Source: an uncultured virus (IMG/VR IMGVR_UViG_3300029448_000007)
Lineage: Duplodnaviria; Heunggongvirae; Uroviricota; Caudoviricetes; Crassvirales
DNA: 64,000 bases
Strand: one strand, 5' to 3'
Virus record (IMG/VR): IMGVR_UViG_3300029448_000007
The notes under the pieces are model-generated. The model had not been told where the DNA came from and did no database searches. It saw only the letters and a list, made by a program, of their open reading frames with translations. How positions within the stretch are numbered: the first letter of the stretch is position 1; each line of letters opens with the position of its first letter. The translations under genes were made by a program, and so were the position numbers. Below are positions 2,995 to 61,906 of the stretch, piece by piece.

Positions 2995-3004
2995 CTTGTA
3001 AAAT

Positions 3005-3178: not shown

Positions 3179-3262
3179 AGCTTTAATTAAAAAAAGATAA
3201 GCTGGCAGTGTATCTTGTGATGCTTACCAGCTATCCTTATAGGTTAGTTAACCCTTAAACTC

Positions 3263-4065: not shown

Positions 4066-4231
4066 AGTTTTTGTTTTTGGTATTTAGAATAACCTTTCTT
4101 CGTTTAAGACATTCATATCGTGGTCATCTGGAAGGTGCCATGCCCTGAATGTTTTATCATCACAATAGAACTTGCTATTGACGATAACTATGTAAAAGAT
4201 GCCAAATTTGACTATCTTAAACTTTGTTGGG

Positions 4232-4546: not shown

Positions 4547-4733
4547 AGTCCATATGCCTGAACAGATAATCTCTGAGTTCTTTCTTCACATGTGGATGTG
4601 CATTTTTTAAGGTGGATATTAGGCTACTCACAAATTCATCGTCAGTCCTAAGACTTTTCCATGCATCTTTAAGATCAGATTCTTCTAATTCACTGATGCG
4701 ATTCTTAATTGTTCCTTTGATAGCGGTGTTCAT
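4488..4733 (-). CDS. Hypothetical protein
   Basis: ORF track. Confidence 0.7.
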   Translation of the reverse strand: MNTAIKGTIKNRISELEESDLKDAWKSLRTDDEFVSSLISTLKNAHPHVKKELRDYLFRHMDYANRMYVEQQVNVKSTEHV

Positions 4734-4748
4734 GTTACTTAAATTTAG

Positions 4749-4824
4749 TTGCGGTTGAGGAATCGAACCTCGGAGGAGAAGCTATCTCAAACGGCTCATG
4801 AGACCGTCTCTGACCAACACCGCA
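4749..4824 (-). tRNA. Aberrant tRNA-like element, anticodon CAT, no D-arm, long variable arm
   Basis: TGCGGT/ACCGCA acceptor, ACGGT-CTCATGA-GCCGT anticodon arm, GAGA-TAGCT-TCTC variable hairpin, GAGG-TTCGATT-CCTC T-arm; only ~10 nt where the D-arm should be. Confidence 0.7.
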
Positions 4825-4892
4825 TTTAAAAAATCAAAGTTTACTTAATTCCCGTGTTTGTTCTGATTTGAAAATTCCCACAATACCATTAC

Positions 4893-5138
4893 TTAGTACT
4901 TGTATACATCGTTACCATTCTTATGGATTGCTCCATTCCCCTTGTACTTCAAACCTCCATCTTCATCTTCATACCACTCATCATCAAATGCTTCTCGAAT
5001 GACAGTACATAAAGATTTCCATGATGAGTCATCAGAAATTTCATTAAACTCCTCTAGTAATAGATTCTCACTTGAAGCTTCTACTATAAAATACGTCCCA
5101 GACGGGTACAATCCCTTTCTACACAGATACTTTTTCAT
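4893..5138 (-). CDS. Hypothetical acidic protein
   Basis: ORF track. Confidence 0.7.
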   Translation of the reverse strand: MKKYLCRKGLYPSGTYFIVEASSENLLLEEFNEISDDSSWKSLCTVIREAFDDEWYEDEDGGLKYKGNGAIHKNGNDVYKY

Positions 5139-5186
5139 GTTTCTTTCTTTTTTTTATTAACTGTTTATCTTCAAGCAAAGATTTAG

Positions 5187-5260
5187 TACACTCGATAGGA
5201 TTCGAACCTATGACCGTCTGCTTAGAAGGCAGATGCTCTATCCAACTGAGCTACGAGTGT
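5187..5260 (-). tRNA. trnR: tRNA-Arg (anticodon TCT)
   Basis: Perfect cloverleaf: ACACTCG/CGAGTGT, GCTC/GAGC, TCTGC-CTTCTAA-GCAGA, ATAGG-TTCGAAT-CCTAT; CCA not encoded. Confidence 0.97.
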
Positions 5261-5267
5261 GGTAATC

Positions 5268-5549
5268 TTAAATTATTTCAGCGTCATTGAAATCTTGATA
5301 GTCAACAAGATTACCGTTAATTGAATAAATTATTCCAGTGAATTTGATTTGACAATCTATGTTCACTGCAGAACAAAAGGCAGCTATTGCTTGTAACGAT
5401 TCGTTACTTACATTTTCACCACCATCAGCTTCAAGACACATGAAACTAAGGTGATTAATAGTGAAGCCTATTCTTAAGACAAAAGTAATGAGCATCATTT
5501 TTTTTTCATCCGTTAAAGTCCACGGACTTTTGAATTCAATCTTGACCAT
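5268..5549 (-). CDS. Hypothetical protein
   Basis: ORF track; preceded by a junction-repeat variant. Confidence 0.7.
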   Translation of the reverse strand: MVKIEFKSPWTLTDEKKMMLITFVLRIGFTINHLSFMCLEADGGENVSNESLQAIAAFCSAVNIDCQIKFTGIIYSINGNLVDYQDFNDAEII

Positions 5550-5574
5550 TTTCTTGGTGTTAAAGGTTAGTAAA

Positions 5575-5960
5575 AAAACCTGGCTCCACTCGGGTTGATC
5601 TTGTGGTAACTTTATAAGTCAGATAGCACCAGGTTTATAAGTATTGGGTAACAAGCATTGCTTCATAACTTGTTACTTACAGCTTATTCGGGTCAAATAA
5701 GCGTGTCAGGTTGTTGTACCCTACTCTACGGACTCTATGCTGCGATTGTATTCGGCAACTCTGTTTTCAGCAAAGGTGTTAACCCGTAAGTGATTTTATC
5801 ACACTAGCTCTAGAAACTAGGAGCATTGCCTTTATTCTCAAATCGTCCCGTATACGAAATAAGGTTTATAGCAATATTATTCAAATGTATCGAGAATGTA
5901 TAAGACTATCAAACACACTATGCCTAAGCACATTGCAAAAAAGTCTTTAATACGTTCTCT
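5575..5960 (+). ncRNA. Candidate large structured non-coding RNA (or ssDNA structure)
   Basis: No ORF >=60 aa; at least eight stems; G-T pairs favour the + strand. Confidence 0.5.
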
Positions 5961-5965
5961 AACAC

Positions 5966-6286
5966 TTAACATCTTTTTGAGATATTATAGCCTTGGTCTT
6001 CTAGAAACTTAAAGCTATATCCTAACTGTAACTCACGAGCAGCACTAACTAATTCATAGATAGTTCTGTTGCGAGGACGAGTATGAAACCTATATGTACC
6101 GCGTGATACTTTACTAACAAGATTTCTGTCTTGTAGAATCGTAAGCATACAATACCTGTAAGGTAACTGATTTACATTGAAAGACTCTCTCGATCTTGAT
6201 AAGTCTTTCACTTTTATGAAACTGCAGTTCATGGTAGATTGATTTATGTGGTAAGGCCAGCCATTACAGCTGACCCCATCCACCAA
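5966..6286 (-). CDS. Hypothetical protein, possible winged-helix (LVSKVSRGTYRF)
   Basis: ORF track; start uncertain. Confidence 0.5.
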   Translation of the reverse strand: MVDGVSCNGWPYHINQSTMNCSFIKVKDLSRSRESFNVNQLPYRYCMLTILQDRNLVSKVSRGTYRFHTRPRNRTIYELVSAARELQLGYSFKFLEDQGYNISKRC

Positions 6287-6685
6287 TTAGTAAAATCTTA
6301 TTTCAATGACATCACCGTTTTTCTTTGTGAGCTTGACCTTGTTCATTCCACTTTTGAATCGGCTATGTGTCATCTTTTCAAGACTTGCATCATCTCTAAA
6401 CCCAAAGGTTACCCTATCACTTACAGGGCTATCAGGTTCTAGGTTAGAAGGTTCTACCCTATTGACATGACCACCAAGTTCGAAGAAGATACCACCATTG
6501 GTATCTATCTCAAACATGATGAGAGTCGTTTGGTACATTGAACCTTTCTCGCTCCAATAGTACATATCACCACAGGTGGTACCATTGACTGTCACATAGC
6601 CACGATAGTGGTCTGTGCGATAGATTTCATCTGAATGCTTGGTGCACGAAGCAAGTGCTACAAGAAATATAAGTAACTTTCTCAT
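6287..6685 (-). CDS. Predicted lipoprotein
   Basis: MRKLLIFLVALAS-C: basic N-terminus, hydrophobic core, lipobox LASC. Confidence 0.8.
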   Translation of the reverse strand: MRKLLIFLVALASCTKHSDEIYRTDHYRGYVTVNGTTCGDMYYWSEKGSMYQTTLIMFEIDTNGGIFFELGGHVNRVEPSNLEPDSPVSDRVTFGFRDDASLEKMTHSRFKSGMNKVKLTKKNGDVIEIRFY

Positions 6686-7071
6686 AGCACTTTGAAAATA
6701 CCGTCATCTTCAAGTTCAAGAAGATAAAAAGATAACTCTTCATCCAACTCTTTCATAGAAGAATACACATCAGTGTTTTCATCAGAGCATTGTTTCATCT
6801 GCTCCAAAGAAAACTCTGTGTTTTGACGACTCTTCTTCTCTATCACATGTACTTTGTCAACTAAACCATCATTATTAATCTCTTCGAGAAGAGTAATGTA
6901 ATGAATTAGGTTCTTATCTACAAAGTAACCAGCAATAGAACTTCTGAGTTTATTACTTTCGTGAAGAGCTCTAAGCTTAATAAGCTTTTTATACTCTTTG
7001 TTATCCCAGACATCTGAGTTAAGTTCGCATTTAAGATCAAACATTCTTTTTTCAATCTCTGAATATGTCAT
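6682..7071 (-). CDS. Hypothetical protein
   Basis: ORF track; ATGA overlap with next gene. Confidence 0.75.
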   Translation of the reverse strand: MTYSEIEKRMFDLKCELNSDVWDNKEYKKLIKLRALHESNKLRSSIAGYFVDKNLIHYITLLEEINNDGLVDKVHVIEKKSRQNTEFSLEQMKQCSDENTDVYSSMKELDEELSFYLLELEDDGIFKVL

Positions 7072-7191
7072 GTGACTTGGTGATTAATTTTAGGTGGGTT
7101 TTGATTAATTCCATGGGTACTATAGTATAGAAGAAAAGAAGAAGAAGTCATTTAATTTTAGTTGATTACGCTATGTATTTATCATAAAAAG

Positions 7192-7219
7192 AAAAAAAGG
7201 GAGCCTGTGAAGACTCCCT
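7192..7219 (-). terminator. Intrinsic terminator
   Basis: AGGGAGTCT-TCAC-AGGCTCCCT followed by a T run on the minus strand. Confidence 0.85.
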
Positions 7220-7232
7220 AAAAGGTGGGTGG

Positions 7233-7466
7233 TTAGATAGGACGTAACGTCTTACCCACAAGTTCGAGCTTTTGCCCCATTTCATCGAGGTTGAGCTCAT
7301 CTCCAACCTTCAACGGCTTGTTGTACTTGAACCACCCGACGATTCCGAAGCCATTGGTGTTGAAGATGTCAATGCCGTAGACATTGGGGTCTTTGTCGGT
7401 TATTGCTACGATGGTAACGGTACCCTCGACAATAGGGTTTTTCGGAGTTTGATTTCCGTCTTGCAT
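7233..7466 (-). CDS. Small early protein (MQDGNQTPK...)
   Basis: ATG 7466 chosen because it sits ~27 nt below the conserved upstream motif. Confidence 0.75.
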   Translation of the reverse strand: MQDGNQTPKNPIVEGTVTIVAITDKDPNVYGIDIFNTNGFGIVGWFKYNKPLKVGDELNLDEMGQKLELVGKTLRPI

Positions 7467-7493
7467 GAGATAAAGTTTAATAGTTCTCGAACC

Positions 7494-7524
7494 CAAGATT
7501 GCGTTCGGTTGGATTTTAGTCCAT
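7494..7524 (-). promoter_or_regulatory. Conserved early motif, copy 3 (ATGGACTAAAATC-N11-AATCTTG)
   Basis: Same motif and spacing at 7882-7912 and 8212-8242. Confidence 0.75.
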
Positions 7525-7528
7525 TAGA

Positions 7529-7560
7529 AGTAGTGAGCCCGACTACTGCCGAGCTCTACT
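7529..7560 (-). terminator. GC-rich hairpin after 7570-7857
   Basis: GAGCTCGGC-AGTA-GTCGGGCTC with extended AGTA/TACT pairing; weak U-tract. Confidence 0.55.
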
Positions 7561-7569
7561 ATTGGGTTG

Positions 7570-7857
7570 CTACATGTCAAGGTACGTATGTTCATCGTCT
7601 GACATATCTTCGAGGTCTTCGAGTTGCTGAACACCCTCTTCGAGAAGCCTCTTACCAACCTTGCTTCTACGGGCTTCTCTACACGCCAAGTCTTCGAGGT
7701 GCATTTTGTAAGTCCTTTTAGCAATTGGGTCGTTTTCGACGTTACCGAAGATATTGGCTTTAACGGTAAACCTTTCTCTGTTGGGTTTCTCCCAAGTCAT
7801 AGTATACCAACCGTGTGCATCCGAAGAGGTTTGCGAAATAAATTTGTTTTGAGCCAT
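7570..7857 (-). CDS. Small early protein (MAQNKFISQ...), acidic C-terminus
   Basis: ATG 7857 lies ~24 nt below the conserved motif. Confidence 0.75.
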   Translation of the reverse strand: MAQNKFISQTSSDAHGWYTMTWEKPNRERFTVKANIFGNVENDPIAKRTYKMHLEDLACREARRSKVGKRLLEEGVQQLEDLEDMSDDEHTYLDM

Positions 7858-7881
7858 GATTAATGGTTTAAGGTTCGGAAT

Positions 7882-7912
7882 CAAGATTGTGTTGGGTTAG
7901 ATTTTAGTACAT
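7882..7912 (-). promoter_or_regulatory. Conserved early motif, copy 2 (ATGTACTAAAATC-N11-AATCTTG)
   Basis: Direct alignment of three copies. Confidence 0.75.
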
Positions 7913-7916
7913 AGGT

Positions 7917-7952
7917 AAAAATAGGGAGCCTCCCGTTAAGGAGACCCCCTAT
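7917..7952 (-). terminator. Intrinsic terminator
   Basis: ATAGGGGGTCTCC-TTAACG-GGAGGCTCCCTAT-TTTT; G-U pairs fit the minus strand. Confidence 0.75.
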
Positions 7953-7957
7953 ATGCT

Positions 7958-8185
7958 TTAGAATAAATCTTCTGTCAGATGGTCCATGAGACCAACGGTT
8001 CCAAGAAAACCACCAACTGTAAACAGGAAGGTTACAATTTGCATGTTTTCTATTACCTCCATGAAAGGGAATGAACCAAAGCTTGCCAACCAAGTGATGC
8101 CGACGGCAATCATAGGAAGTGAGGCAATCAATGTCCAAACAAACAGAAAGACAACAGCTAAACGGAGTGCTTTTTTCACACGCAT
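7958..8185 (-). CDS. Small early membrane protein
   Basis: ORF track; two hydrophobic segments; ~26 nt below the conserved motif. Confidence 0.8.
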   Translation of the reverse strand: MRVKKALRLAVVFLFVWTLIASLPMIAVGITWLASFGSFPFMEVIENMQIVTFLFTVGGFLGTVGLMDHLTEDLF

Positions 8186-8211
8186 GAGATAATTGTTTAT
8201 AGGTTCAAGCT

Positions 8212-8242
8212 CAAGATTGGGTAAGGCTGGATTTTAGTACAT
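8212..8242 (-). promoter_or_regulatory. Conserved early motif, copy 1 (ATGTACTAAAATC-N11-AATCTTG)
   Basis: Direct alignment of three copies. Confidence 0.75.
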
Positions 8243-8250
8243 ACACGAGA

Positions 8251-8280
8251 AGATGATAGAGGATGATAGAAGATGATAGA
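8251..8280. repeat. 10-bp tandem repeat RGATGATAGA x3
   Basis: Direct reading. Confidence 0.9.
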
Positions 8281-8281
8281 A

Positions 8282-8299
8282 GAGGGGGTTTCCCCCCTC
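8282..8299 (-). terminator. GAAA-tetraloop hairpin after 8304-8468
   Basis: GAGGGGG-GAAA-CCCCCTC; no clean U-tract. Confidence 0.55.
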
Positions 8300-8303
8300 A
8301 TCA

Positions 8304-8468
8304 TCATGGCGTCACTGGATCGTGGCCTTCGTTGCGCATCTCATCCCATAGATGTTGGATGTCCTCGGCTTCTTCTGCGAGAGCTTCTTCTTTCGCATTG
8401 AGTTCTTCTTGCTCTTGCTTGAGTTCTTCAGCGAGCTTTTGGAGTTCTTCTCCGTCTAAATTTACCAT
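8304..8468 (-). CDS. 54-aa very acidic helical protein, first gene of the leftward unit
   Basis: Hand-translated MVNLDGEELQKLAEELKQEQEELNAKEEALAEEAEDIQHLWDEMRNEGHDPVTP. Confidence 0.8.
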   Translation of the reverse strand: MVNLDGEELQKLAEELKQEQEELNAKEEALAEEAEDIQHLWDEMRNEGHDPVTP

Positions 8469-8597
8469 TTCATTTTGGTTTTTGTGGTGGCGTAGGTACC
8501 ACCAAAATCAAGAATGCAGTGGGGCTTGATATTATAAAGGTTCCCACATACCAACACTCTGAAATTTTTTAAAAAAATTTTTTGTATATTTACGCTT

Positions 8598-8795
8598 ATG
8601 GAAGAAATGATACAAGCTATTATTGATGAGCTTCAAGATGAAGCCACAATTGAGGTATCTAAGGAAAACGGTCTTCTTATTATAAAGGCTCTATGGGGCA
8701 ATGAAACTAGGAAGCTTGTACTTAGACCTGAAGATGATTTTCATGTAATTGCTGACTGGGCTACTGAGCTTATTAATGATATGCAAGATGCCTAA
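8598..8795 (+). CDS. Hypothetical acidic protein
   Basis: ORF track; TATATTTA at 8585-8592 just upstream. Confidence 0.75.
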   Translation: MEEMIQAIIDELQDEATIEVSKENGLLIIKALWGNETRKLVLRPEDDFHVIADWATELINDMQDA

Positions 8796-9033
8796 GTGGG
8801 ATTATATAGAGGATGCTATGTCTACCGTATATGATTTAGATGGGGATGTTTTTGTAGAGTATGATCACTATGTACCTAGCGGTTCTGGTGGTAACTTCCA
8901 GTCTGCCAAGTTTAGAATTACTGTAAAGATATACGATAATGAAACTTGGACTTCACATACAAAGACTTTTGACTTACAAACGCAGTCTGAAACAACAGAG
9001 GCTGTGACTGCTTGGGCTGAAACAATCAGCTAA
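8788..9033 (+). CDS. Hypothetical protein (MPKWDY...)
   Basis: ORF track frame, start moved to ATG 8788. Confidence 0.7.
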   Translation: MPKWDYIEDAMSTVYDLDGDVFVEYDHYVPSGSGGNFQSAKFRITVKIYDNETWTSHTKTFDLQTQSETTEAVTAWAETIS

Positions 9034-9215
9034 AAAGAGTAAGCAGAAAAAATAACTACCCTTTGTTTTTGTAATGACTCTGCTAGCAAGCTGGCTTAGT
9101 AACAGAGCGCCGAAGTAACTTTCGATACGCAAAGTTACGACTTATTTTTTGACGAGTCAAGTATTTTTTTAAAAAAATATAACAGGATATATGTATAGTT
9201 TATAATATTCTTTGT

Positions 9216-9223
9216 TATATTTG
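9216..9223 (+). promoter_or_regulatory. Bacteroidota -7 promoter element TATATTTG
   Basis: Exact TAnnTTTG, 4 nt before ATG 9228. Confidence 0.65.
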
Positions 9224-9227
9224 CAAA

Positions 9228-9536
9228 ATGGATAAAGCATTACGTTACAATGAGGGTAAACCAAGGTGGTCTCTCGTTGATTTCAAATCCTTAGAAGGGA
9301 TGGTAAGAGTATTAGAGTTTGGCGCACAGAAATATGATAAAGACAATTGGAAGAAAGGTGAGCACACATCTAAGATATGTGAATCACTACTTCGTCATCT
9401 GTTTGCACACATGTCAGGTAAACGTATTGATGAGGAATCTGGACTTTCCCACATTGATCATGTCGCTTGTAATGTAATGTTCTTGTCTTATATGACTAAT
9501 CAAAAACCTGAATTCGATGACATCCCAAAAAAATAA
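9228..9536 (+). CDS. dATP/dGTP diphosphohydrolase-domain protein (DUF5664-like)
   Basis: RYNEGKPRWSL, VLEFGAQKY..NWKKG, SLLRHL, DEESGLSHIDHVACN motifs. Confidence 0.9.
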   Translation: MDKALRYNEGKPRWSLVDFKSLEGMVRVLEFGAQKYDKDNWKKGEHTSKICESLLRHLFAHMSGKRIDEESGLSHIDHVACNVMFLSYMTNQKPEFDDIPKK

Positions 9537-9693
9537 CTACAACGACGATCCAGTAGAATATTGTGCTTATTGTAAAAGTTTGCACATTCTAGAAACAAAG
9601 AATGGTGTGATTTGTGGATCTTGTGGCGCGGAAAACTATACCAATACTCATAAAAATATAGAAGAATATCTTGAAAGGTTTGGCAAAAGATAG
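9517..9693 (+). CDS. 58-aa zinc-ribbon protein
   Basis: Hand-translated MTSQKNNYNDDPVEYCAYCKSLHI...ICGSCGA...; two CxxC. Confidence 0.8.
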   Translation: MTSQKNNYNDDPVEYCAYCKSLHILETKNGVICGSCGAENYTNTHKNIEEYLERFGKR

Positions 9694-9859
9694 AATAGTT
9701 ACAAAGTACAACGACTACGAAAAGATGGTCAAAGGATTTCTTCGTTCAGAGAAAATCCTAAAAGAAAAGTACAACAACTACTCTATGAGAATGGAGTTTG
9801 AAAAAGAAACCAACCGTTCGTTTGTAATAATCGAATTTAATAATGGAAAACAAAAGTAA
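9671..9859 (+). CDS. Hypothetical protein
   Basis: ORF track; start uncertain. Confidence 0.55.
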   Translation: MKGLAKDRIVTKYNDYEKMVKGFLRSEKILKEKYNNYSMRMEFEKETNRSFVIIEFNNGKQK

Positions 9860-10511
9860 GCGTCTATTGAAATCACTTCCTTTAAATAAAAATATCGAGT
9901 TAGATGAAGAGCAGCGTGATGCTTTTGAGGTAATTACAAACTCTAAGCTTACTGTTCTTAACGGACTCGCTGGAACTTCTAAAACATTTACTGCTTGTTA
10001 CGCAGCTTTACATAAATTCTTCAAAAGAGAAGTAGATAGGATTACCATTATGCGTCCTATGGTAGGCACAGAAGAGTCAAAGACTGGAATCTTGCCAGGA
10101 ACCATAGAAGAAAAGATGGAGCCTTGGCTACTTCCCGTTTTAGAAAATATGTATTTGATAGGTGGTAAGCAGACAGTACAAAAGATGTACTCTGAAGGAA
10201 AGATTCGTGCACTTCCTTTGAACTTTGCACAAGGAAACACATTTGTTGATGAGTTTGTAATTGTAGATGAATCACAGAACTGTACAAAGCAACAAGTTAC
10301 TATGATCATCACAAGGCTTGGGCTTAGATCTTCTATGGTATTTACGGGAGACCCCAATCAAATACAGTTGAAAGCTAAGTCACACTCTGGTTTACAAAGG
10401 TTGATGGATATAAACAACAAGGTACCATCAATGGATGTGTTTACTCTTACTAAAAACTATCGCGACCCGATAGTCAGAGAAATACTTGAGGCCTATGAAA
10501 AAGACAGTTAA
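9843..10511 (+). CDS. phoH: PhoH-family ATPase
   Basis: GLAGTSKT Walker A, RP, G.LPG..EEKMEPW, IVDESQN, TRLG, GDPNQ. Confidence 0.95.
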   Translation: MENKSKRLLKSLPLNKNIELDEEQRDAFEVITNSKLTVLNGLAGTSKTFTACYAALHKFFKREVDRITIMRPMVGTEESKTGILPGTIEEKMEPWLLPVLENMYLIGGKQTVQKMYSEGKIRALPLNFAQGNTFVDEFVIVDESQNCTKQQVTMIITRLGLRSSMVFTGDPNQIQLKAKSHSGLQRLMDINNKVPSMDVFTLTKNYRDPIVREILEAYEKDS

Positions 10512-53000: not shown

Positions 53001-55229
53001 ACTGTTTATAACCAAACTCTTCAACAGTTAAGACAAGATGTTGTAAGAGCTAGATTAAATGGTGAAACAAGTGTAACTACAACATTCCAACAACAGTATC
53101 CTTTAAACTTTGATAATCAGCCTACTGTAGATGGCAAAGCTTCTACTAATAGTATCCTTGAGGTTTTCAATATGGACCCTCAACAAGTTAGAGATAACTT
53201 GAGAGTTGGTAACTCTGGAAGAAACAGAAATGGTAGGAAAAAAGTAGATGGTGCTCGTTGGGTTAGCATGGATTCTAAAGAAGACTTTGATATCAGAGCA
53301 AGAGATGCTGGTATCTCAGGTAAGATTGGAATGAAAGTAAGAAACCCAAATGGTTCTTACTCTGTTGCAAAGCTTAACCTTGAGAAGATTTCAGAAAGCG
53401 ATGCAGATTTTATTTTTAGAATATACGAATCTTTGTCTGGTGTAGGCACTAGTATGCAAACACAGGTTCCAGAAAACCTTATGCGTGAGTTCAAACAGAG
53501 AACAGGTCTTAGCTTTGAACCTCAAACAATGTTAGACCTTGTTAAATTCTACATTCACGATGGTCACTATAAGAATGGAGATAAGACAGAATTTAATCCT
53601 AAAACTAAAGTTGTTTTAAACAAAGGTGTCTTGATGTACAACGGCAATAAGTCAGTAGATAATTTTAACGACCCTATCCAAAGACAAGAGTTTATGGATT
53701 TCCTTATGGAAAACAAACGCTATAATATTAAGAAGGGTAAAGAGATGACTACTGAATATGTTGAGTGGTTGCTTAATACAAACAATACATATCCTGGACC
53801 TCCTATTCTTAACACCAACCTTGGGCCTGACATCTTTGACAATGCTGTTTATTGGAAAGATGCGGATGGTAATAGAAAGAAATTCTCAGGTTCTGTTTAC
53901 ATTAAACCTCTAACGGTAAGGCCACAAAAGAAAGTAACAGAAAGCCAAACAAACATCCAGCAACAAGTTAAACAAAAGCTTGATGGGATTGGCACGATGC
54001 AAAAGTCAGATGGTAAGTATGGTGGAACACATACTAGAGTATCTGAACATATTTCACCAAAGAAAGGTGAAGGTGAAGTTTTACCAGCAGCTGTTAAGAG
54101 AGCTGCACAGGTAGGTACAAATCTTGACCAAGTAGCAAGAGATTTCTTTGAGGGTAAACTTAAAGCTTTTGAAGAATATAAAGATGAGAATGGTGTTTTG
54201 TTCTTTAAGCAAGAGAATGTATTTAACACTTTTATAGAACAGCTAAAAGAAACACAAGAGAAAGCTTTAGCAAGGGGAGCTATACTTTACACAACCCCTG
54301 TACACCTTAGAGATGATGAAGCTCTAATTGCTGGTGAACCAGACATGTTACTTATTGAACCAGATGGTTCTATTAACATTGTTGACTTTAAAGCATTTGT
54401 AAGAGGTGCTAGAAGACTTAAAGATGACTCCGATGTTGAAGGTGAAACTATGCTTGAACACTATACTAAGCAACAAAACATGTATAGAATGCTTGGTATC
54501 AACATGGGTCTCAATATGCAGTCAATGGGTCTTTTGGTATTCCAAATTAAATATAGAAATAGTATTACTGTAAATACAGTACTGACTCAAAAAAGAGTTC
54601 CGCTACAACTTCTTGATGATGTCAATGGATATCGTATTAAAAGAAAACCAGATTCTACATTCCCCGCTGCTCAGAATAATAAACTTTCAGAAGCAGAATC
54701 ACTACCGTTTAGAGAACAGCCAATAATTAAAGAAACAATTATTTATAAAAAAGGTGGTAAAGAATATACCTATATCATTAAAGGTACTAAAATCTTTAAC
54801 GATAAGGGTAAAGAGGTATATGCAAAAGCAAGTATAGACAGAGATAAAATATTTGCTAATTTAGCAATTAAGCAAAAAAGAGCTAAAGTAGTTGAGGTTG
54901 AAGGCAATTCATATGTTGTAAACAAAGAAGGTAAGGTTATGTCTGTGGATACAGGTAAGATTATGAATCGAGAAACAAACCCAACTTTGTATAACAGTAT
55001 TATACAAAAAGCTTTTTCTACTAAAAAAGAAAAAACCACAGAAGATGTTGAAAAAGAAAAGAAGCTTACTAAAGAAGTCAACGATCAGTTAGGAGGAAAA
55101 AATAGTATTGAGGAAAGAAGAAAAGCTTTAGCTGAAAGAATAAAGAAAGGTAGAGCTAAGGGTTATACTAAGAAAGACAATATTGAAGAGGATCCAAACA
55201 AGGACTCAACTTGTAAAAAAAATAAATAA
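50094..55229 (+). CDS. Giant virion protein with membrane-like N-terminal region and PD-(D/E)XK nuclease-like domain
   Basis: EAGEEISQG, GFFGGG; IAGEPDMLLI...IVDFK...YTKQQNMY. Confidence 0.8.
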   Translation: MDKEVKFQKTNLKKSNQNLPVSPKVTEESFIHSDQAPLLTKDSKYDANLQAYKIRREGIDKTLAANQTGWDEAMNGIGRGVASGLATAVENLSYIPNIFTQDFEANALSEAMKDVKEDLREALPIYRTSDDPFSWDNGAVVWESLAGVLDSGIGFAIPGVGISKGISLAGRGISRAGRLGRLGARAAALRQSALANPVIKQLSTSTMAGVISNDLEGTMMGVEIYENKVKELKKKRNDGEIDATDEQIKEAAHRQAANFKLHNRAFAITDAFALQGLTRGHGITRNLIADPKNFKNKLTKSLTSPDSLLAQGLTEAGEEISQGVLQKMAEFRIDKEFGLAKDDKSTMSRALEYALDRETLYEGMLGFFGGGFQRVVSESTNKAADFFENKRIDKKIKNLQSLIDNSDDVVENKKLEARIEDLQKQKASFKRQESYEKQQSLIAALQEDVDKAMAQDVKLSEGEAYFNKETAAHEQMRQTFRDVRFRKLAITHFENGTTEKLEESLNNIEDSDLRAHYLGKLKTYEKAYINNSGAAMGDLLFHQYTDIDILQDKVNAINNAISEAESDPVIQDEELIKNLQESKTAFEEKLNTARDEYKKARKNDKQTLIKILEKKAQEYSDAQTVEEVEDIQKEHEQDGYDTSEAAEEAKKTAKENENESLKKDSEARSYAEMYQDDDFDPYEDYDPSSKGVVTPETVTTQDVEKEREVALEREKDNLQEPFAPGSDQTVGEKINEEYDAKAEEAVDVPQPEFVPDDDTYIPVEPEDDYDPEAYYRDSELGQEEIDSLEEIKEEKKKDEESAPITDLEVGNDKTFESDGQSRPATGENQEDYIDEPGTQRGVKLMDAFDARPEGKNKDGSHIVPGYFKRKYGAFLNWLRNWSKDTSVTLDDFAVRLEVDFDSNSYPPNVDIKALEDKLNKQNLSDKEFLEIVSKVSIKAVVVRKQGGDAVIDSSTNSEVFTFLRIKSNDTVYNQTLQQLRQDVVRARLNGETSVTTTFQQQYPLNFDNQPTVDGKASTNSILEVFNMDPQQVRDNLRVGNSGRNRNGRKKVDGARWVSMDSKEDFDIRARDAGISGKIGMKVRNPNGSYSVAKLNLEKISESDADFIFRIYESLSGVGTSMQTQVPENLMREFKQRTGLSFEPQTMLDLVKFYIHDGHYKNGDKTEFNPKTKVVLNKGVLMYNGNKSVDNFNDPIQRQEFMDFLMENKRYNIKKGKEMTTEYVEWLLNTNNTYPGPPILNTNLGPDIFDNAVYWKDADGNRKKFSGSVYIKPLTVRPQKKVTESQTNIQQQVKQKLDGIGTMQKSDGKYGGTHTRVSEHISPKKGEGEVLPAAVKRAAQVGTNLDQVARDFFEGKLKAFEEYKDENGVLFFKQENVFNTFIEQLKETQEKALARGAILYTTPVHLRDDEALIAGEPDMLLIEPDGSINIVDFKAFVRGARRLKDDSDVEGETMLEHYTKQQNMYRMLGINMGLNMQSMGLLVFQIKYRNSITVNTVLTQKRVPLQLLDDVNGYRIKRKPDSTFPAAQNNKLSEAESLPFREQPIIKETIIYKKGGKEYTYIIKGTKIFNDKGKEVYAKASIDRDKIFANLAIKQKRAKVVEVEGNSYVVNKEGKVMSVDTGKIMNRETNPTLYNSIIQKAFSTKKEKTTEDVEKEKKLTKEVNDQLGGKNSIEERRKALAERIKKGRAKGYTKKDNIEEDPNKDSTCKKNK

Positions 55230-58200
55230 TGGCGTGTAAGTTTATAGCAAACAATGGGATTGAATCCAAACTTCATGAACAACTCATTAAAGAATTTGGT
55301 GGTGACCCATCTTCTCTTTCTAAGATAGGTGCTTTTAAAGAAATACCTTTCAATAATAGAGCAGATGACTTGTACGCTTTTGTACAAGGTTCTGGATTTA
55401 GAGCTTGGTTTGGTGACTTCACTAAAGAAAACTTACCCAACACAGATGAGAATGGTGAGCCTGTTTTACAAAACGATGGTGAATACTATTTTGAGAGAGA
55501 AGATGGTGCTAGAGAATATCTTACAGGTGAGGATTCTGTGTTCTCAATTCAAGACAAACATGATGTCTTTGAACTTCTTAGATTTGGTTTTATAGAATCT
55601 CTTAAGAGTGATGACAGAGGAACTCTTATATCTTTTATTTCAGAGTCTTCAAGCTTAGAAGAAGCTCTTGAGGGAGGTCTTACTAGTGTTATGGAAGACA
55701 CTGTTGAAAGAATTGTTAATGATGAAAATAAAGTTCTGACTGATTCGCAGATGGAACTTTTAGAGAAACTGTACGATAATCAAGAGCAAACAATTCCTAT
55801 GTTTTCAGATATGATGAAAAGGTTTTATTCAAACCTTGGCATCACATTCAAAGAAGACAACAATATTGATGAAGATGAGAATGGTAACGACAAAGAAGGT
55901 GGTACAAGTATAGACTCTGACTTTAGTCCTTCTGTTGAATCAGACCCTATTAAGACAGCATCTCGTGCTGTCAAAGTTTATCTAAGCCATATAGCAAAGT
56001 CAGACTCTAAAAGTAAGTTTGGTGAGGCAACGTATGAGTCTTTTAATGGTATTCAAAAGACTCTTATTCGATTGTTTTCTGATGCAGAAGGAAAGTCTTT
56101 GTCTCAGTTTGACATGACCTTCGGAGAACTCTTTGACTTATATATCGATAGACTTGGTAAACTAGAGAATGAATTTTCTTGGGCAACTACTATTATACAA
56201 GACCTAAATAAGATGAAAGAAAATGGAGATATCAACTCCATTAAGCAATTCATGGTTGGTCTTACAAGTCAATATTATAACTATACAATTGGTACGTTTG
56301 ACACAAATGGTAATGTAAAATACATTTCTACATCTGCTTCTGAAGGAAATACACAGAGGATTATTTCTGCTTGGAATACAGATTTTATTTCTAACAAAGG
56401 TTCTTTACAGCAACTTTCTCCAGATAAAGTTAAAAAGGAAAGCGACACTCAAGAGGGTGTTGTTTCTACTGTCGTTGATCACATTTTTAATAACCTTTCT
56501 TCTTTTGGTATAAACATCAAAAGACAAGCTATTGAAGATGTTATTACCGATGAGAACTCTACATACTTAACAGGAAATACTGAAGAGAAAGCTTTTAAGA
56601 TTCTTAATTTTTTTAATGACTTTGTTGAAGACATCCAAGAGAAGAAAGAGAAAGGAGACTTCTTTGATAATCTTGGTAGAGAAAAAAGTATAATCAAAGA
56701 AAATGAGTTCATTAGAGAGATTGCAAAGAAGCAGGTTCTCTATATGGAGGATAATATAAATGAATCTGTTCAAAGACCTAGTGGTCAATCTTATTCTTTT
56801 TCAAAACCAACATTTATAAAAGACCAGCTTGATCGTATTCTTAATGCAAAAAACTCACAATCTTATATCAAGAATCTTCAGAATAATAAGTACTACGCTG
56901 TTTCTAAATGGTTTGAAGCATTAGCTGATAAGACCAAAAAAGCAGCTGTTAATATGATGTCTCACTTTAAGAAAGACAGGGCGAGTGACGCTGGTAACGA
57001 TAATAAAGATATCAAGCTTGCTGATGAGTTGTCTATGAACATCACTATGATGTTGAGGGCAGTTACAGCAGAAGGTAGAAAGCTAAAGCAAAGACCTGTA
57101 TTTAGAACACTTACTGCTGGTGATAAGTCAAGAGCTTTTCATATTGAAGGAGACTTTCCAATTACACAGACTGAGTTTTTTAATGACAACAAGCTTGGTG
57201 ATAACGTAATAACAAGAGCTGTCGACTATGTAAATGCTGAATTTACAAGAGCTTATGATGTTGCTAAACAAATTAAAGCTGTTGAAAAAGGTAAGGCAGA
57301 AGGTATCATTTACTATAATACTGGACCAAAGAACGGTCTTAAGATATATTCTTTACCTGAACTATCACATCAAGTATATAACGCTGTTGTGTTTGACAAG
57401 TCAGATTCTATTGCTGATAAAATGAATCAAGAAACTAAAGACTTGATTCTAGACCTCCACAATAAAATCAAAGAGGTAAATAAGATAGGACTGTACAGTG
57501 AGAATGGTATGCCCATGTTTGCAGATCTTGTTAAAGATAACGAGATAAGTGATGACATAAGAGCATTTGTTGAAAACATTGTTACAAAAAAAGTATTAGC
57601 GGGTGTTGCAGAAATGAGTTCTTTCTTTCATCCTAATGTCAGAGGAACTAAAAATGAAAAACCTCGTATTGTTGTTGACAAACAAATTCTTAATGAATAT
57701 AAAGCAAGAAACAACAATAACGAAGATGCGGCTATTAATAATATTCTAGCAGATTATTTTGTAAATCAGTTCTTTGCAAATATCGAGTATACGAAAATGT
57801 TTACTGGAGACCCTGCTTATTATAAGAATGAGGATGACTTTAGAAAAAGAGTACAAGCTACTTACATTGATGGTGATGTAGGAATCTTTGGTGACTTCAA
57901 AGGAAAGACAGATAATAAATTTAAAGTTGCTGTTACCAAAAAGATTTTTAGAGCAACAAAAGAAGAAATCTTAGAAGAGTGGAAAGAATACATTGGTGAT
58001 AAAATAGAAAACTACAAAAGTAATAACATCGCTGATGCTCAAGCTTGGATCACACTTGACAGATGGACACAAATTGAAAAGTCATTAGGTAGGTGGACAA
58101 AGACACATGATAAAATTTTTAAGAAAGTCAATAAAGGTCAAGATCTAAATAAAGAAGAACTGGATTTTGTTCTAAAGAATCATCCACCACAGTCAATGAA

Positions 58201-61200
58201 GGGTGTTTACTTTAACATTGATGAAACTGGAAGACCAACATACTTAAAGTATTCACAAGCCGTACTTATACCTCAGCTTATCAAAGGCTCTCCTACATTA
58301 GAAAAGATGGCTGTAAAAATGAAAGCTGGGGGTATTGATGAACTTGTAACACTTGACGGTATTAAGGTTGGTGCGCCATCAAATATGTTTGATGCCAACT
58401 TAGATATTGAGAATAGTAAGTTCTTGACACTTGAACTTGATGCGACAAAGTGGAGACTGCAACAAGATCTTCCAACAAAAGGTGTTAAGCAACAAGATGT
58501 TGGTTCTCAGATAATGAAGAACATTCTTGCAAACATCAAACTTGATGGTGACTATACATTAGATAGAGAAACAGTAAAAGGTTCTAAAATTAAAGATAAA
58601 ATTTTTGAAATTATTAAAGAGCTTTCAGATGAGGGTACTTTAAGTTTTAAAAAAGAAATCTTTCAAACTGACGAAAGTGGTAATATTATCGAAGGTAAAA
58701 TTGATAGAACAAAAGTTACAAAGCTTATTCTAGATAATCTTAGAGATGTTGATGAAAACATAGAGTACGCTCTTAATAGAGGTACTAGCTTTGATGTTCT
58801 ACCGAACATTAGAACTCAAGTTCAAAATACTCTTTTTTCACAGATTGCAAAAGCGATGAAACCAAAAACATTGGGTGCTGGTTTTATCCAAGTAGCTCCT
58901 TATGGTTTTGAAAATTTTGAGAATAGGTCTGATGTTATCTGGCTCAAAGAAGGAGAAAAAGTTTTAGATCCACCCAGAGAAGCCAATAACTTTAAAGGTG
59001 AATTCTTAGTATCAGGGTCTTTATTGAATAAGCTTATTCAAAAGAAAAAACCAGGTGAAACGTATAAGACTTATATTACTGATAAGAAAGGTAACATAGA
59101 AAGAAATGAAGATGGTTCTATAAATACAAGTCGTTTGTTTGGACCAGAAGGTTTGTTTAATAGTGTAAGTGACCTTAGTGCTATTGGATATCGTATTCCT
59201 AACCAAGGACTTTCATCTAATGATGCTTTGACTATTGCTGGTATTCTACCAGATATTGCTGGTGACATCATTGTACCTTACGGAGAAATTACAACTAAAA
59301 CGGGTTCTGACTTTGACATCGATAAGATGTATGTCATGTTTAAAAACATAGAACCTGATTTTTCAAAAGGTAAGAAAAAACAAACTAGAGCTCTTGTTTC
59401 CAATTTAATGAAAGCTGCAAAATTAGAAACTCCTAATAATACGTTGATTTCTTTGTATGAGTCTATTCTAACAAATCGTGAGCATACAGTTCCTCAAACA
59501 CTCAATCCTCTAGACTCAAGTGAGCTTCAAGACTTTATTGAAAAAGAGCTTGGTCTTAAAAAGATATTTGACCTTTTCGATCCTGTTGAGGATTTGAAAC
59601 TAAAACATAATATTAAAGGTGGTAAAGCAAATGTTGGTATTACAGCAAACCACATTGTAAATATTGTATATGCTCAATTAGCACAGTCTGAAATACTAGC
59701 TGACTTGGGTGTTGGACACTATAATGAGACAACAAACAGTACAGCTTTATACGAACAGTATGTAGAAGGTTCTGATAATGAGTATATTACTAAAACCCTT
59801 AATGACTTTCTTAACGCATTTGTTGATATCAACAAAGACCCATACATTGTAAATGGTAACTACAATACTAAGACTACTGGTATTGCATTTATGTTAATTA
59901 GAGCTGGAGCTTCAAAAGAATGGGTAACATCTTTTCTAAAGCAACCTGCTATTGACCGCCTTCTAAAAGGTATGGAGATGGAAGATGCAAGTGTTACAGG
60001 TTTTGTTCCCAATGATAAAAAAGCTTTACAAAGACTTATTAAAAGCTATGAGACTCTCTCTGGTAGTAAAATGGATTTTGATGAAGCTACAGAATATGTT
60101 AGAAGAAAGTTTACAGAAAAGAGTCTTAAGAAGAATGTGGGTAAGTCTGATACAGACCCTGAGTTTCAGCTAGCTACTTTGGTTATGTTCAAGAAGTATA
60201 TGCAGCTTGCTCAAGGACTTTCTAATTTTAACTCAGCGATGAGATCTGATGTATTGGGTGCGGGTAAAGATTATTCCGAACTTATAGCTATCAGAAATAC
60301 TGTTAGAAAAGTTTTGTATGAAAAGAAAGTAAGTGGTCTAGATGAAGTATTTGCAAATACTCAGGTAGGTACATTCTATGAAAACTCTGTTCGTATAGCA
60401 GAGGACGTTGTAGAACAACTATTTAATATTAACAAAGCGGATAACATTGTAGATGAGATTGGCAATGATATTACAGGTAATTATATCACCAATGCAAAAG
60501 ATATAACCGATATTCATAGATCTCTTTACACATATTTTTATTTCAGCGGAGAGATTGCAGAGATGACTGTTCAAGAACAAAAAGATTTGTTTACAGGTAA
60601 AGACAACTTAGGTAAGAGAATAAAACTAGCAAGACGAGGTGGAGAAAATATAGAAGGTGCTTACTTGCTTAACAATCTAAAAATTGAAGCTGCTAAGTTT
60701 AATGGTCAGGTATATAATTTTATTTCATTGCCTAGTTCTACAAAGGCGGATGCTGAATTTAAAGATGATGTTCGTAAAGCTTGGCTTGAACTTCTAAGAT
60801 CAAATGATGAAAACTTAAGACAGATTGGAGAAGACCTTGTTAAACATGGTTTCTTATCTACAGGTTTTAAGAAAGGTCTTGGTTCAACATTTGATTACAT
60901 TCCAAATGAATGGTTCTTTAGAAGCAACTTCGCTAAGAACGTACAATCTAAGTTTGATGATTTAGATAACCAATCTGCTTTTCAAGAAGCTGTTGACTTT
61001 GTATATTTAGATAACGAGGATAATTCTAAGTTTGTACCAAACATAAAAACCTTAGGAGATCGAGAAAATCTTTTTGGAAGCTCAAATGCTTTTATAGTTC
61101 CTAAGCCAGAAAAAACAGCAAGGAGATTTGTTAAAGATGATAAAGATTCTATCTATAAATTTATAGGTAAAGGTGCTGAAGGTGGACATATTTATCTTTT

Positions 61201-61906
61201 AAGTAAAAAAATTAAAGTTTCTTTAGACAATAAGTATAGTTACTATAGTATAAGAAAAGATAGTAATGATAAAACTTTGTTACCTAAGTCTCAAAAGGTA
61301 ATAGAAGATTTTACAGAACTAAGAAGAAAAGTTAATGGTCTAGTAAATAGAAGTGCTCAAGAAGTAAGAGAATCTATTTTTGAAGATATCAATAGTATCT
61401 CTGATAGAGATTTAGAATATTCTAATGAACGCCTTCAGCTTACTGAAGATATATCTCAACCAACACAACAAGCTGCTGAGGTTAAAAGTATTCCTGAAAA
61501 TATTAAAGATGTTGTAAATAAAGTTTATCCTGGATGGATAAACAAAACTAATAATCAAATAAGTCTCGCTGCCGAGTTTAAAACTGCTGAACGTGTTACA
61601 GAAACATTTGGGGAAAATACTATTGAAAAAAGAATTAATGATGGTAAGACAGCTTTAGATTTTTTAAATCAAATAAAGAAAGGTAAAAATCCTTTTACAG
61701 AAAAAACAACAATTGAAGAACAAATTCCAAATTTGTTATATAATTATCTAAGTGGAGAATTAGCTAAAGATGGTATTCTTGAAAAAGATATGTTTAATAA
61801 CATACTTCAAACAACACAGTCAAAAGTCGGAGAACAATTATCTCTTGACCTCTTACCTGAAGAGAGTGATGAGGAAGCGAAAGGAAGAAGTAGATGTAAA
61901 GGTTAA
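55229..61906 (+). CDS. Virion DNA-dependent RNA polymerase (crAss-type)
   Basis: GYRIPNQG and TGSDFDIDKMY catalytic motif, GDPAYYK...KR, ADAQAW, VDINKDP. Confidence 0.95.
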   Translation: MACKFIANNGIESKLHEQLIKEFGGDPSSLSKIGAFKEIPFNNRADDLYAFVQGSGFRAWFGDFTKENLPNTDENGEPVLQNDGEYYFEREDGAREYLTGEDSVFSIQDKHDVFELLRFGFIESLKSDDRGTLISFISESSSLEEALEGGLTSVMEDTVERIVNDENKVLTDSQMELLEKLYDNQEQTIPMFSDMMKRFYSNLGITFKEDNNIDEDENGNDKEGGTSIDSDFSPSVESDPIKTASRAVKVYLSHIAKSDSKSKFGEATYESFNGIQKTLIRLFSDAEGKSLSQFDMTFGELFDLYIDRLGKLENEFSWATTIIQDLNKMKENGDINSIKQFMVGLTSQYYNYTIGTFDTNGNVKYISTSASEGNTQRIISAWNTDFISNKGSLQQLSPDKVKKESDTQEGVVSTVVDHIFNNLSSFGINIKRQAIEDVITDENSTYLTGNTEEKAFKILNFFNDFVEDIQEKKEKGDFFDNLGREKSIIKENEFIREIAKKQVLYMEDNINESVQRPSGQSYSFSKPTFIKDQLDRILNAKNSQSYIKNLQNNKYYAVSKWFEALADKTKKAAVNMMSHFKKDRASDAGNDNKDIKLADELSMNITMMLRAVTAEGRKLKQRPVFRTLTAGDKSRAFHIEGDFPITQTEFFNDNKLGDNVITRAVDYVNAEFTRAYDVAKQIKAVEKGKAEGIIYYNTGPKNGLKIYSLPELSHQVYNAVVFDKSDSIADKMNQETKDLILDLHNKIKEVNKIGLYSENGMPMFADLVKDNEISDDIRAFVENIVTKKVLAGVAEMSSFFHPNVRGTKNEKPRIVVDKQILNEYKARNNNNEDAAINNILADYFVNQFFANIEYTKMFTGDPAYYKNEDDFRKRVQATYIDGDVGIFGDFKGKTDNKFKVAVTKKIFRATKEEILEEWKEYIGDKIENYKSNNIADAQAWITLDRWTQIEKSLGRWTKTHDKIFKKVNKGQDLNKEELDFVLKNHPPQSMKGVYFNIDETGRPTYLKYSQAVLIPQLIKGSPTLEKMAVKMKAGGIDELVTLDGIKVGAPSNMFDANLDIENSKFLTLELDATKWRLQQDLPTKGVKQQDVGSQIMKNILANIKLDGDYTLDRETVKGSKIKDKIFEIIKELSDEGTLSFKKEIFQTDESGNIIEGKIDRTKVTKLILDNLRDVDENIEYALNRGTSFDVLPNIRTQVQNTLFSQIAKAMKPKTLGAGFIQVAPYGFENFENRSDVIWLKEGEKVLDPPREANNFKGEFLVSGSLLNKLIQKKKPGETYKTYITDKKGNIERNEDGSINTSRLFGPEGLFNSVSDLSAIGYRIPNQGLSSNDALTIAGILPDIAGDIIVPYGEITTKTGSDFDIDKMYVMFKNIEPDFSKGKKKQTRALVSNLMKAAKLETPNNTLISLYESILTNREHTVPQTLNPLDSSELQDFIEKELGLKKIFDLFDPVEDLKLKHNIKGGKANVGITANHIVNIVYAQLAQSEILADLGVGHYNETTNSTALYEQYVEGSDNEYITKTLNDFLNAFVDINKDPYIVNGNYNTKTTGIAFMLIRAGASKEWVTSFLKQPAIDRLLKGMEMEDASVTGFVPNDKKALQRLIKSYETLSGSKMDFDEATEYVRRKFTEKSLKKNVGKSDTDPEFQLATLVMFKKYMQLAQGLSNFNSAMRSDVLGAGKDYSELIAIRNTVRKVLYEKKVSGLDEVFANTQVGTFYENSVRIAEDVVEQLFNINKADNIVDEIGNDITGNYITNAKDITDIHRSLYTYFYFSGEIAEMTVQEQKDLFTGKDNLGKRIKLARRGGENIEGAYLLNNLKIEAAKFNGQVYNFISLPSSTKADAEFKDDVRKAWLELLRSNDENLRQIGEDLVKHGFLSTGFKKGLGSTFDYIPNEWFFRSNFAKNVQSKFDDLDNQSAFQEAVDFVYLDNEDNSKFVPNIKTLGDRENLFGSSNAFIVPKPEKTARRFVKDDKDSIYKFIGKGAEGGHIYLLSKKIKVSLDNKYSYYSIRKDSNDKTLLPKSQKVIEDFTELRRKVNGLVNRSAQEVRESIFEDINSISDRDLEYSNERLQLTEDISQPTQQAAEVKSIPENIKDVVNKVYPGWINKTNNQISLAAEFKTAERVTETFGENTIEKRINDGKTALDFLNQIKKGKNPFTEKTTIEEQIPNLLYNYLSGELAKDGILEKDMFNNILQTTQSKVGEQLSLDLLPEESDEEAKGRSRCKG

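Follow-up and report, generated by a model that had tools for sequence, protein, structure and literature searches.

We suggest that the leftward gene arm of an uncultured marine crassvirus (IMG/VR record IMGVR_UViG_3300029448_000007; Crassvirales) opens with an array of four small cassettes, each of which very probably consists of a promoter, a leader, one open reading frame (ORF) and a terminator. The array lies on the minus strand of the window, by which we mean the whole stretch of 64,000 nucleotides (nt) that was analyzed, and runs leftward from ~8540. The crAss-like phages rank among the most abundant known, and to our knowledge all of them inject a giant RNA polymerase (RNAP). The fuller statement, that the promoter of each cassette is read by the injected virion RNAP encoded at 55229-61906, is advanced tentatively from genome layout, and we give it slightly less than an even chance. 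We are a shade more reserved about the most specific form of the model, in which the motif is a duplex-DNA promoter of this two-barrel enzyme, and the repeated junction is both a stop-restart unit of immediate-early transcription and a recombination scaffold for trading host-takeover genes. In this model, a cassette would open with a phage-specific promoter (ATGKAC-TAAAATY, 9-14 nt, C-N-W-TCTTG, 5 nt, GA(AC)), transcription starting from the conserved G that follows TCTTG by five bases. The leader, unstructured and A/T-rich, would measure ~20 nt and lead into a single small ORF of no known family, and the GC-rich hairpin at the end of the cassette would terminate or attenuate the transcript. 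Because the junction of hairpin and promoter is repeated, it would double as a site of homologous recombination, at which strains would acquire, drop and rearrange cassettes. From their position, and from the analogy to phages phi14:2 and crAss001, the cassettes would be the first genes expressed, and the injected two-barrel RNAP would be the most likely reader. We thus infer promoter activity, start site, early timing and polymerase identity, whereas the anatomy and conservation of the array, the occurrence of the motif ahead of unrelated genes, the rearrangement breakpoints at its copies and the chance-level likeness to host promoters are observations, presented below.

The core of the motif, ACTAAAATC-N11-AATCTTG, is found in three exact minus-strand copies with identical spacing (8238-8212, 7908-7882 and 7520-7494), each with ATG(T/G) directly on its 5' side, and no exact match occurred in 100 dinucleotide-preserving shuffles of the window. 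No additional copy appeared anywhere in the 64 kb when up to three mismatches were tolerated, and a profile search of the same 64 kb matched the three exact copies and a degenerate copy ahead of the first gene (P0), and nothing else. The initial annotation had described these copies, their distance to the start codon and a common leader, and all of this holds: the end of AATCTTG lies 26, 24 and 27 nt from the ORF ATG in copies A, B and C, respectively, and the leader elements GAAC, TAAAC and TTA are visible in the alignment of copies. Counting P0, the four motif copies stand 24-40 nt ahead of their small ORF. P0 itself (TAATATC-N12-ATTCTTG, 8536-8509) is real but weak: the profile of internal copies gives it an E-value of 0.48, and it is kept, with changes, in the related contigs L155/L146/L156 and L145 (three strain variants). 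The motif copies and genes of the array are as follows.

8509..8536, minus strand: P0, degenerate first motif copy, TATAATATC-N12-ATTCTTG, then 5 nt and GG (read from the sequence; profile)
8486..8503, minus strand: P0 leader hairpin, GGTGG-N8-CCACC (read from the sequence; weak fold)
8304..8468, minus strand: gene 1, 54 amino acids (aa), acidic, coiled-coil-like, no known family (sub-threshold coiled-coil Pfam matches only)
8203..8242, minus strand: motif copy A, ATGTACTAAAATC-N11-AATCTTG-N5-GAAC (profile E 1e-11)
7958..8185, minus strand: gene 2, 75 aa, hydrophobic, no family (ortholog in L155, distant homologue in L145)
7873..7912, minus strand: motif copy B, ATGTACTAAAATC-N11-AATCTTG-N5-GAAC (exact match; profile)
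7570..7857, minus strand: gene 3, 95 aa, no family (ORF list; PHROG, Pfam)
7483..7524, minus strand: motif copy C, ATGGACTAAAATC-N11-AATCTTG-N5-GAGAAC (exact match; profile)
7233..7466, minus strand: gene 4, 77 aa (ORF list)

Strain L145 carries a different hairpin-forming sequence at the place of the P0 leader hairpin.

The initial annotation had proposed a search for the motif in relatives. A metagenome scan with a 20-base version returned eight rows, corresponding to six loci on five contigs. Every locus is this array again, from a near-identical strain, and contains 2-4 exact copies. Across the ten distinct internal copies thus available, ATG, CTAA, T, C, C, TCTTG and GA are invariant and the spacers vary. 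The downstream half of the motif is rigid, with C-N-W-TCTTG followed by five bases and GA (mostly GAAC). Copies were collected with a pattern that demanded TCTTG and W and left free both the C three bases before TCTTG and the GA after N5; that C is nonetheless present in 14 of 14 distinct copies, and the GA in all ten internal ones, the three P0 variants carrying GG instead. The upstream half, ATGKAC-TAAAATY, is less strictly placed: TAAAATY and TCTTG are separated by 9-14 nt. Overall, conservation extends over ~45 nt, which is unusually long. Orientation is constant, and TCTTG lies 21-27 nt from the start codon in 10/10 internal copies. In the window and its relatives, the motif is limited to the first 1.3-3.3 kb of the leftward arm. 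All ten distinct internal copies also contain an in-frame two-codon mini-ORF, ATG-NNC-TAA (Met-Tyr/Asp/Gly-stop), located in the window at 8242-8234, 7912-7904 and 7524-7516 on the minus strand; it may simply follow from the DNA signal, or have a function on read-through transcripts.

That each gene is closed by a GC-rich hairpin of its own, as initially noted, is borne out by folding. All four gene 3' regions form such hairpins (-13.8 to -23.1 kcal/mol, z -3.3 to -4.4), and in every case none of 200 shuffles folded as well.

8282..8299, minus strand: hairpin after gene 1, GAGGGGGG-AAA-CCCCCTC, without a clean T-run (fold z -3.3)
8248..8283, minus strand: tandem 10-nt unit TCTATCATCY, three times, between hairpin 1 and motif A; L155/L146 have two
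7921..7952, minus strand: hairpin after gene 2, 14-bp stem then TTTTT, terminator-like (-23.1 kcal/mol, z -4.4)
7531..7561, minus strand: hairpin after gene 3, without T-run (-17.8 kcal/mol, z -4.2)
7185..7219, minus strand: hairpin and T-run, TTTTTTTCTTTTT, closing the array; the strongest intrinsic-terminator-like site (z -4.3)

The T-run required by a simple terminator rule is present at two of the four (after genes 2 and 4); applied to 6000-10000, the rule finds two sites, no excess over shuffles (mean 2.6). Within the window, 39, 8 and 4 nt separate a hairpin from the motif that follows. Of the ten internal copies, seven have a hairpin ending 4-10 nt ahead of ATGKAC and two have one 29-39 nt away, the position being unclear in the last; a clear preceding hairpin is seen for six of the seven internal copies of L155, the one before its gene 4 being weak. 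These upstream hairpins have mutually unrelated sequences, with 7-14-bp stems, 4-nt loops and T-runs in about half of them, and are best read as the ends of the preceding units. RNAalifold predicted no conserved pairs in the motif and leader of the ten copies, and in single-strand DNA folds only the upstream hairpins appear, none of them strong ahead of P0. This overall organization of the motif fits a linear sequence signal.

Comparison of strains demonstrates that cassettes have been shuffled at the repeats. L155 and L156 contain eight motif-led units versus four in the window, in strains that are ~93-98% alike, and their order is P0 with a gene 1 variant, a 93-aa gene, gene 2, a 99-aa gene, a 57-aa gene, gene 3, a gene of 70 aa (L155) or 159 aa (L156), and gene 4. 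Across strains, the motif heads nine unrelated ORFs of 54-159 aa. Motif copies mark both limits of the BLAST homology blocks that the window shares with L155 (8243-7848, 7921-7487 and 7529-7079). L155 and L156 have one motif copy in common and diverge right after its TCTTG, into the 70-aa and the 159-aa gene, respectively. The 57-aa unit of L155, flanked by like terminator-motif junctions, is missing in L153. In the viral contig L145, a diverged P0 heads a 31%-identical homologue of gene 4, followed by a homologue of gene 2 with an unrelated upstream region. A 132-aa lipoprotein-like gene, which lacks the motif, lies inside the array in L155 and L156 and downstream of it (6287-6685) in the window. 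Together with the constant orientation and distance and the lack of any copy elsewhere in the 64 kb, the nine unrelated ORFs give the promoter reading of the initial annotation good comparative support. More distant searches added little. The nearest record breaks off ahead of the array. A profile search for remote relatives of gene 4 recovered only the L145 contig, and searches of viral contigs anchored on PhoH and TerL returned near-identical fragments ending short of the array, unrelated phages, or a single relative (48% in TerL) with 684 nt upstream. A 16-base version of the motif gave at least 120 single matches in viral contigs, with no multi-copy locus among the matches listed (chance level), and a 22-base version gave none. 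In bacterial genome contigs, an 18-base version produced 22 single matches in scattered taxa and no multi-copy locus, again at chance level.

The closest described system is that of the PeSL cassettes of T4-type phages, composite early-promoter/stem-loop units that precede ORFs of unknown function in hyperplastic regions and mediate modular shuffling among close relatives (PMC2839356, PMC4122927). In both cases small terminator/promoter composites stand before family-less ORFs (4/4 cassettes in the window), in a hyperplastic region where whole-gene indels and replacements are bounded by repeats that serve as sites of homologous exchange. There are also differences. PeSL promoters are identical to the host sigma-70 consensus and are read by the host, whereas the cassette motif resembles host promoters at chance level in a phage that carries a virion RNAP; the PeSL stem-loop often lies within or over the promoter boxes, whereas here it is upstream of the motif; and one short array at the start of one arm of a Crassvirales genome contrasts with ~50 PeSL units over several regions. 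The breakpoints at motif copies could also mean that the motif is mainly a protein-binding site (an operator) or a recombination site, devoid of promoter activity of its own, and the loose spacing of its blocks (9-14 nt) and its long conservation (~45 nt) would agree with this. Against it stand the fixed orientation and the tight 21-27 nt from TCTTG to the start codon in all ten internal copies. Moreover, each gene needs a start signal of its own because terminator-like hairpins lie upstream of the motif copies, and recombination in the system already described is a by-product of the promoters being repeated (PMC2839356). We consider this explanation improbable.

Equally hard to credit, in our judgment, is that the motif acts in RNA. 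Here, a single transcript would start from P0, and hairpin plus motif would form a site of processing, stability or translation control, for instance through the mini-ORF ATG-NNC-TAA. The mini-ORF is in frame in all ten internal copies, two of the four hairpins in the window lack a T-run, so that read-through is possible, and a contig from an RNA library of a relative passes through the gene 4 terminator, although that library may contain DNA. The motif and leader nonetheless show no conserved pairs, no Rfam family other than tRNA was found in 1-10000, and the hairpins after genes 2 and 4 resemble full intrinsic terminators. P0 itself contains the TAAWATY and CNWTCTTG blocks, though nothing on that strand transcribes into it.

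The polymerase favored as reader is encoded in the same window.

55229..61906, plus strand: virion RNA polymerase homologue, 2225 aa, candidate reader of the motif (PDB 6VR4, phi14:2 gp66, E 1.3e-121)

The initial annotation had named this gene, and it proves to be a true homologue of phi14:2 gp66: besides the match to 6VR4, DFDID occupies residues 1361-1365 of the 2225-aa protein, the same residue numbers as in gp66 (preprint 10.1101/2020.03.07.982082). Families of crassvirus cargo, muzzle, ring and capsid proteins adjoin the RNAP gene, the neighboring cargo-type proteins being encoded at 47272-55229, and Pfam identifies the window as a crassvirus (major capsid protein at E 5e-144, muzzle, tail ring proteins 1-4, auxiliary capsid and cargo protein 1). 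Identity between its terminase and those of cultured members, IAS virus and crAss001 included, does not exceed 40%. Genes diverge leftward from ~8540 and rightward, into the structural arm, from 8598, which places the four cassettes at the head of the arm pointing away from the structural genes. The corresponding arm of phi14:2 constitutes the early, rifampicin-resistant class of genes, ascribed to gp66 (preprint 10.1101/2020.03.07.982082), and in crAss001 a small gene set at one genome end is switched on within 10 min (PMC8375218). From layout, then, we infer that the cassettes are expressed early. Contigs from RNA libraries (four runs) cover both flanks of the array and none lies within 7471-8538, where strains differ; such contigs cannot show transcript ends.

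The initial annotation had further proposed that the promoters might be assisted by hairpins, as in phage N4, and the comparison does not support this part. The upstream GC-rich hairpin would be extruded and recognized, together with ATGKAC, by the virion RNAP as structured single-stranded DNA. In vitro, phi14:2 gp66 uses only single-stranded or denatured DNA, and N4 virion RNAP starts 8 nt downstream of its hairpin (PMC4496689). In seven of ten internal copies, 4-10 nt lie between hairpin and ATGKAC. As with the N4 promoters P1-P3, a few promoters would be located here before the first-expressed genes and serve an injected RNAP. However, the N4 promoters are extruded hairpins with conserved bases, centered at -11, that need gyrase and SSB and are used by a T7-like single-subunit RNAP (PMC4496689). 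In the cassettes, the hairpins have no common sequence, have stems of 7-14 bp, carry T-runs, as terminators do, in about half of the cases and stand anywhere from 4 to 39 nt away, two copies having theirs 29-39 nt off and P0 lacking a strong predicted one; no hairpin is conserved in the motif itself; and the RNAP has the two-barrel fold, not the T7-like one (6VR4 match, DFDID). We regard a promoter of the N4 type as highly improbable.

A more serious competitor, which we still rate as rather unlikely, keeps the same anatomy and has the motif read by the host RNAP, be it through the primary sigma factor at a deviant promoter, an alternative host sigma factor, or one that the phage brings in. 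On this view, the array would be a genuine equivalent of the T4 PeSLs, whose promoters are host-read (PMC2839356). We took the host consensus from PMC9723704 and from the phi14:2 promoters. Bacteroidota promoters have a TAnnTTTG -7 box at -12 to -5; in Flavobacterium psychrophilum, the median 5' untranslated region is 24 nt and a variant box, TAnnTTGY, has been described (PMC9723704). In the phi14:2 promoters ascribed to host RNAP (preprint), TTG-N20-TAnnTTTG is present in all four upstream regions read. The cassette motif resembles a Bacteroidota primary-sigma promoter in overall length, in having a TTG box 5-6 nt before a likely purine start, and in its short leader without Shine-Dalgarno sequence, and its layout can be read as sigma-type: ATG-N20-CAATCTTG, then a purine 6 nt beyond the box, then ~20 nt of leader. 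One copy in L155, TATCTTGC, fits the variant box exactly. In addition, the early transcripts of phi14:2 are described as motif-less, so that, going by this one model system, a strongly conserved motif would be unexpected for a virion RNAP. However, each of the four cassette upstream regions scores 6/9 against TTG-N19-21-TAnnTTTG, a score reached by 71% of 5000 random 80-mers from the window, and the likeness of ATG-N20-CAATCTTG to TTG-N20-TAnnTTTG was rejected as chance level on this control. By comparison, the region before the plus-strand gene at 23581 scores 9/9, which only 13 of the 5000 random 80-mers attain. TAnnTTTG is absent from the coding strand of 7190-8560 and from all 14 distinct motif copies, in keeping with the initial remark that the motif differs from the host consensus. 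The two C's that depart from it are kept in 14/14 copies, including very diverged ones, where a primary sigma factor should tolerate changes toward consensus, and the best-kept block of the motif, the invariant TAAAATY, has no counterpart in host promoters. The same genome does have perfect TAnnTTTG boxes on the plus strand, before the genes at 9228, 23581 and 45870. Pfam detected no sigma-like protein among the 57 distinct ORFs scanned in the 64-kb window, which is part of the genome, and the 18-base motif is not recurrent in bacteria. Because of this chance-level fit, the preserved C's, the TAAAATY block foreign to host promoters, the lack of a sigma-like ORF among those scanned and of a recurrent bacterial signal, the sequence evidence favors a reader other than the primary host holoenzyme. 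A simple sigma-70 scan of 6000-10000 yielded no more sites than shuffles. As separate observations on the plus strand, the gene at 23581 has a perfect host-type TTG-N21-TATATTTG, and another motif, ATAT(A/G)TAGTTTnTGTTATAT, precedes late-type genes (23504-23523 and 45818-45837, with a partial copy at 9209-9222).

With the primary host holoenzyme disfavored, the injected RNAP remains a plausible candidate, assigned on the basis of genome layout and the biology of phi14:2 and crAss001, and several points weigh against it. According to the authors of the phi14:2 study (preprint 10.1101/2020.03.07.982082), no shared motif precedes the early transcripts of this phage, which is the only crAss-like one whose early 5' ends have been mapped, and gp66 was active in vitro solely on DNA that was single-stranded or denatured. 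The window motif is absent from the 59 kb of phi14:2 that were scanned. All motif-bearing relatives are near-identical, and the copies are paralogues alike through descent and recombination. The spacing of 9-14 nt between blocks is awkward for rigid two-block recognition. Finally, a profile search found no motif copy in the remaining leftward arm (1-7070); therefore, should the virion RNAP also serve the genes of that part, as it does in phi14:2, it would have to rely on something other than the motif.

In other respects phi14:2 is similar. The RNAPs are homologous, an arm of small genes diverges from the structural arm, and the early arm of phi14:2 starts with small genes (g111-g114) separated by gaps of 110-210 nt that hold strong hairpins (97.9-99.7 kb of the record). 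By eye, the leaders of g111-g114 seemed alike (AGCCTTAC, ATAAACAAT), but this candidate was rejected, since profile searches did no better than E 1.1. In crAss001, the 635-nt non-coding stretch before the first early gene (upstream of Gp104; 11986-12620 of the sequence read) contains, also by eye, ~4 copies of a word that includes TTAATAG. The closest case for an injected two-barrel RNAP is gp96 of the Thermus phage P23-45, to which a conserved AT-rich pre-early motif with 14 start sites was assigned by ChIP-seq and ONT-cappable-seq (PMC10770324). There as here, a strongly conserved phage-specific motif precedes the first genes near one genome end, and a two-barrel RNAP (our candidate reader) is injected; RNAP-bearing relatives of P23-45 keep the motif. 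The P23-45 assignment is experimental, whereas that of the cassette motif is a proposal from sequence. The two RNAPs are distant, and termination in P23-45 relies on a conserved 26-nt motif, whereas the cassette hairpins are unrelated in sequence.

If the virion RNAP does read the motif, this would be the first sequence-defined promoter for this enzyme class in Crassvirales. We found no description in the literature of a promoter for a crAss-like virion RNAP, and the word "promoter" is absent from a 2023 review of the order (PMC10136315). The array offers short, naturally varied templates (ten distinct internal copies and three distant P0 versions), and recognition could be tested in vitro without a cultured host because the matching polymerase gene sits in the same window. 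Should the host polymerase read the motif, the result would be more ordinary, yet would still provide a strong, portable phage promoter for marine Bacteroidota. In either case, PeSL-style cassette shuffling, so far described for T4-type phages, operates in Crassvirales. The traded genes are family-less and show a nonsynonymous excess between strains, a pattern expected of genes that meet host defenses.

Genes 2-4 have ~93% DNA identity between the window and L155, whereas the terminase protein of the related contigs is 98-99% identical. The nonsynonymous versus synonymous codon differences in this comparison are 9:4, 15:3 and 11:2 for genes 2, 3 and 4. Judging from these sequences, genes 2-4 look like fast-evolving genes, as genes of host interaction would be. 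Gene 1 varies in length (56 aa in L155, 62 aa in L156). Above threshold, Pfam gave nothing for the nine motif-led ORFs, the motif-less lipoprotein-like gene, the L145 homologue and the two adjoining genes of the variable region, and PHROGs, run on the ORFs of the window, gave no family for the cassette ORFs. Inspection by eye suggests that the product of gene 2 is probably a small membrane protein. For gene 3, AlphaFold predicts three strands followed by two long helices, at a low confidence (pLDDT 66) that makes the model too poor as a search query, and an Atlas search returned nothing for this gene. For gene 4, whose family comprises only four clusters among 5.8 billion proteins, the Atlas leads were OB-fold-like and below the threshold of that search; its product is possibly a small beta-barrel.

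Beyond gene 4, the strain-variable region continues as follows.

6287..7232, minus strand: rest of the strain-variable region, with a 129-aa gene, the 132-aa lipoprotein-like gene and a possible decayed motif half, ACTAAAATT, at 7162

An RNA-library contig of a relative omits 6290-7077 entirely, and in L155 the start of the 129-aa gene is partly duplicated (125 nt). The stretches compared here are 6287-7071 of the window and 829-1233 and 3927-4456 of the L155 minus strand. Farther along the leftward arm, a tRNA-Arg (anticodon TCT) is located at 5186-5260 on the minus strand (ARAGORN and Rfam), which accounts for the great depth of the RNA-library contigs at 5193-5255 and for the many loose ends there. 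The deepest such contigs on the 8-kb stretch, at 5215-5737 in two runs of one study, have mean word depths of 309 and 135, compared with ~15-25 for structural genes. They span the ORF at 5268-5549 and reach into the 416-nt gap above it, which has no ORF, and recall the highly transcribed intergenic regions of phi14:2 (preprint), contig depth being a poor measure and the edge of the tRNA being included. Six genes of the arm (ATGs at 5549, 2499, 2186, 1498, 1173 and 874, minus strand) share another leader, (CCTTTA)ACACCAAAGAGAG-ATG, which may represent a second class of start or translation signal. At the divergent junction, one RNA-library contig (depth 2.85) joins 8711 back to 8537, giving a 175-nt tandem repeat (8537-8711) that could be a strain variant or an assembly effect.

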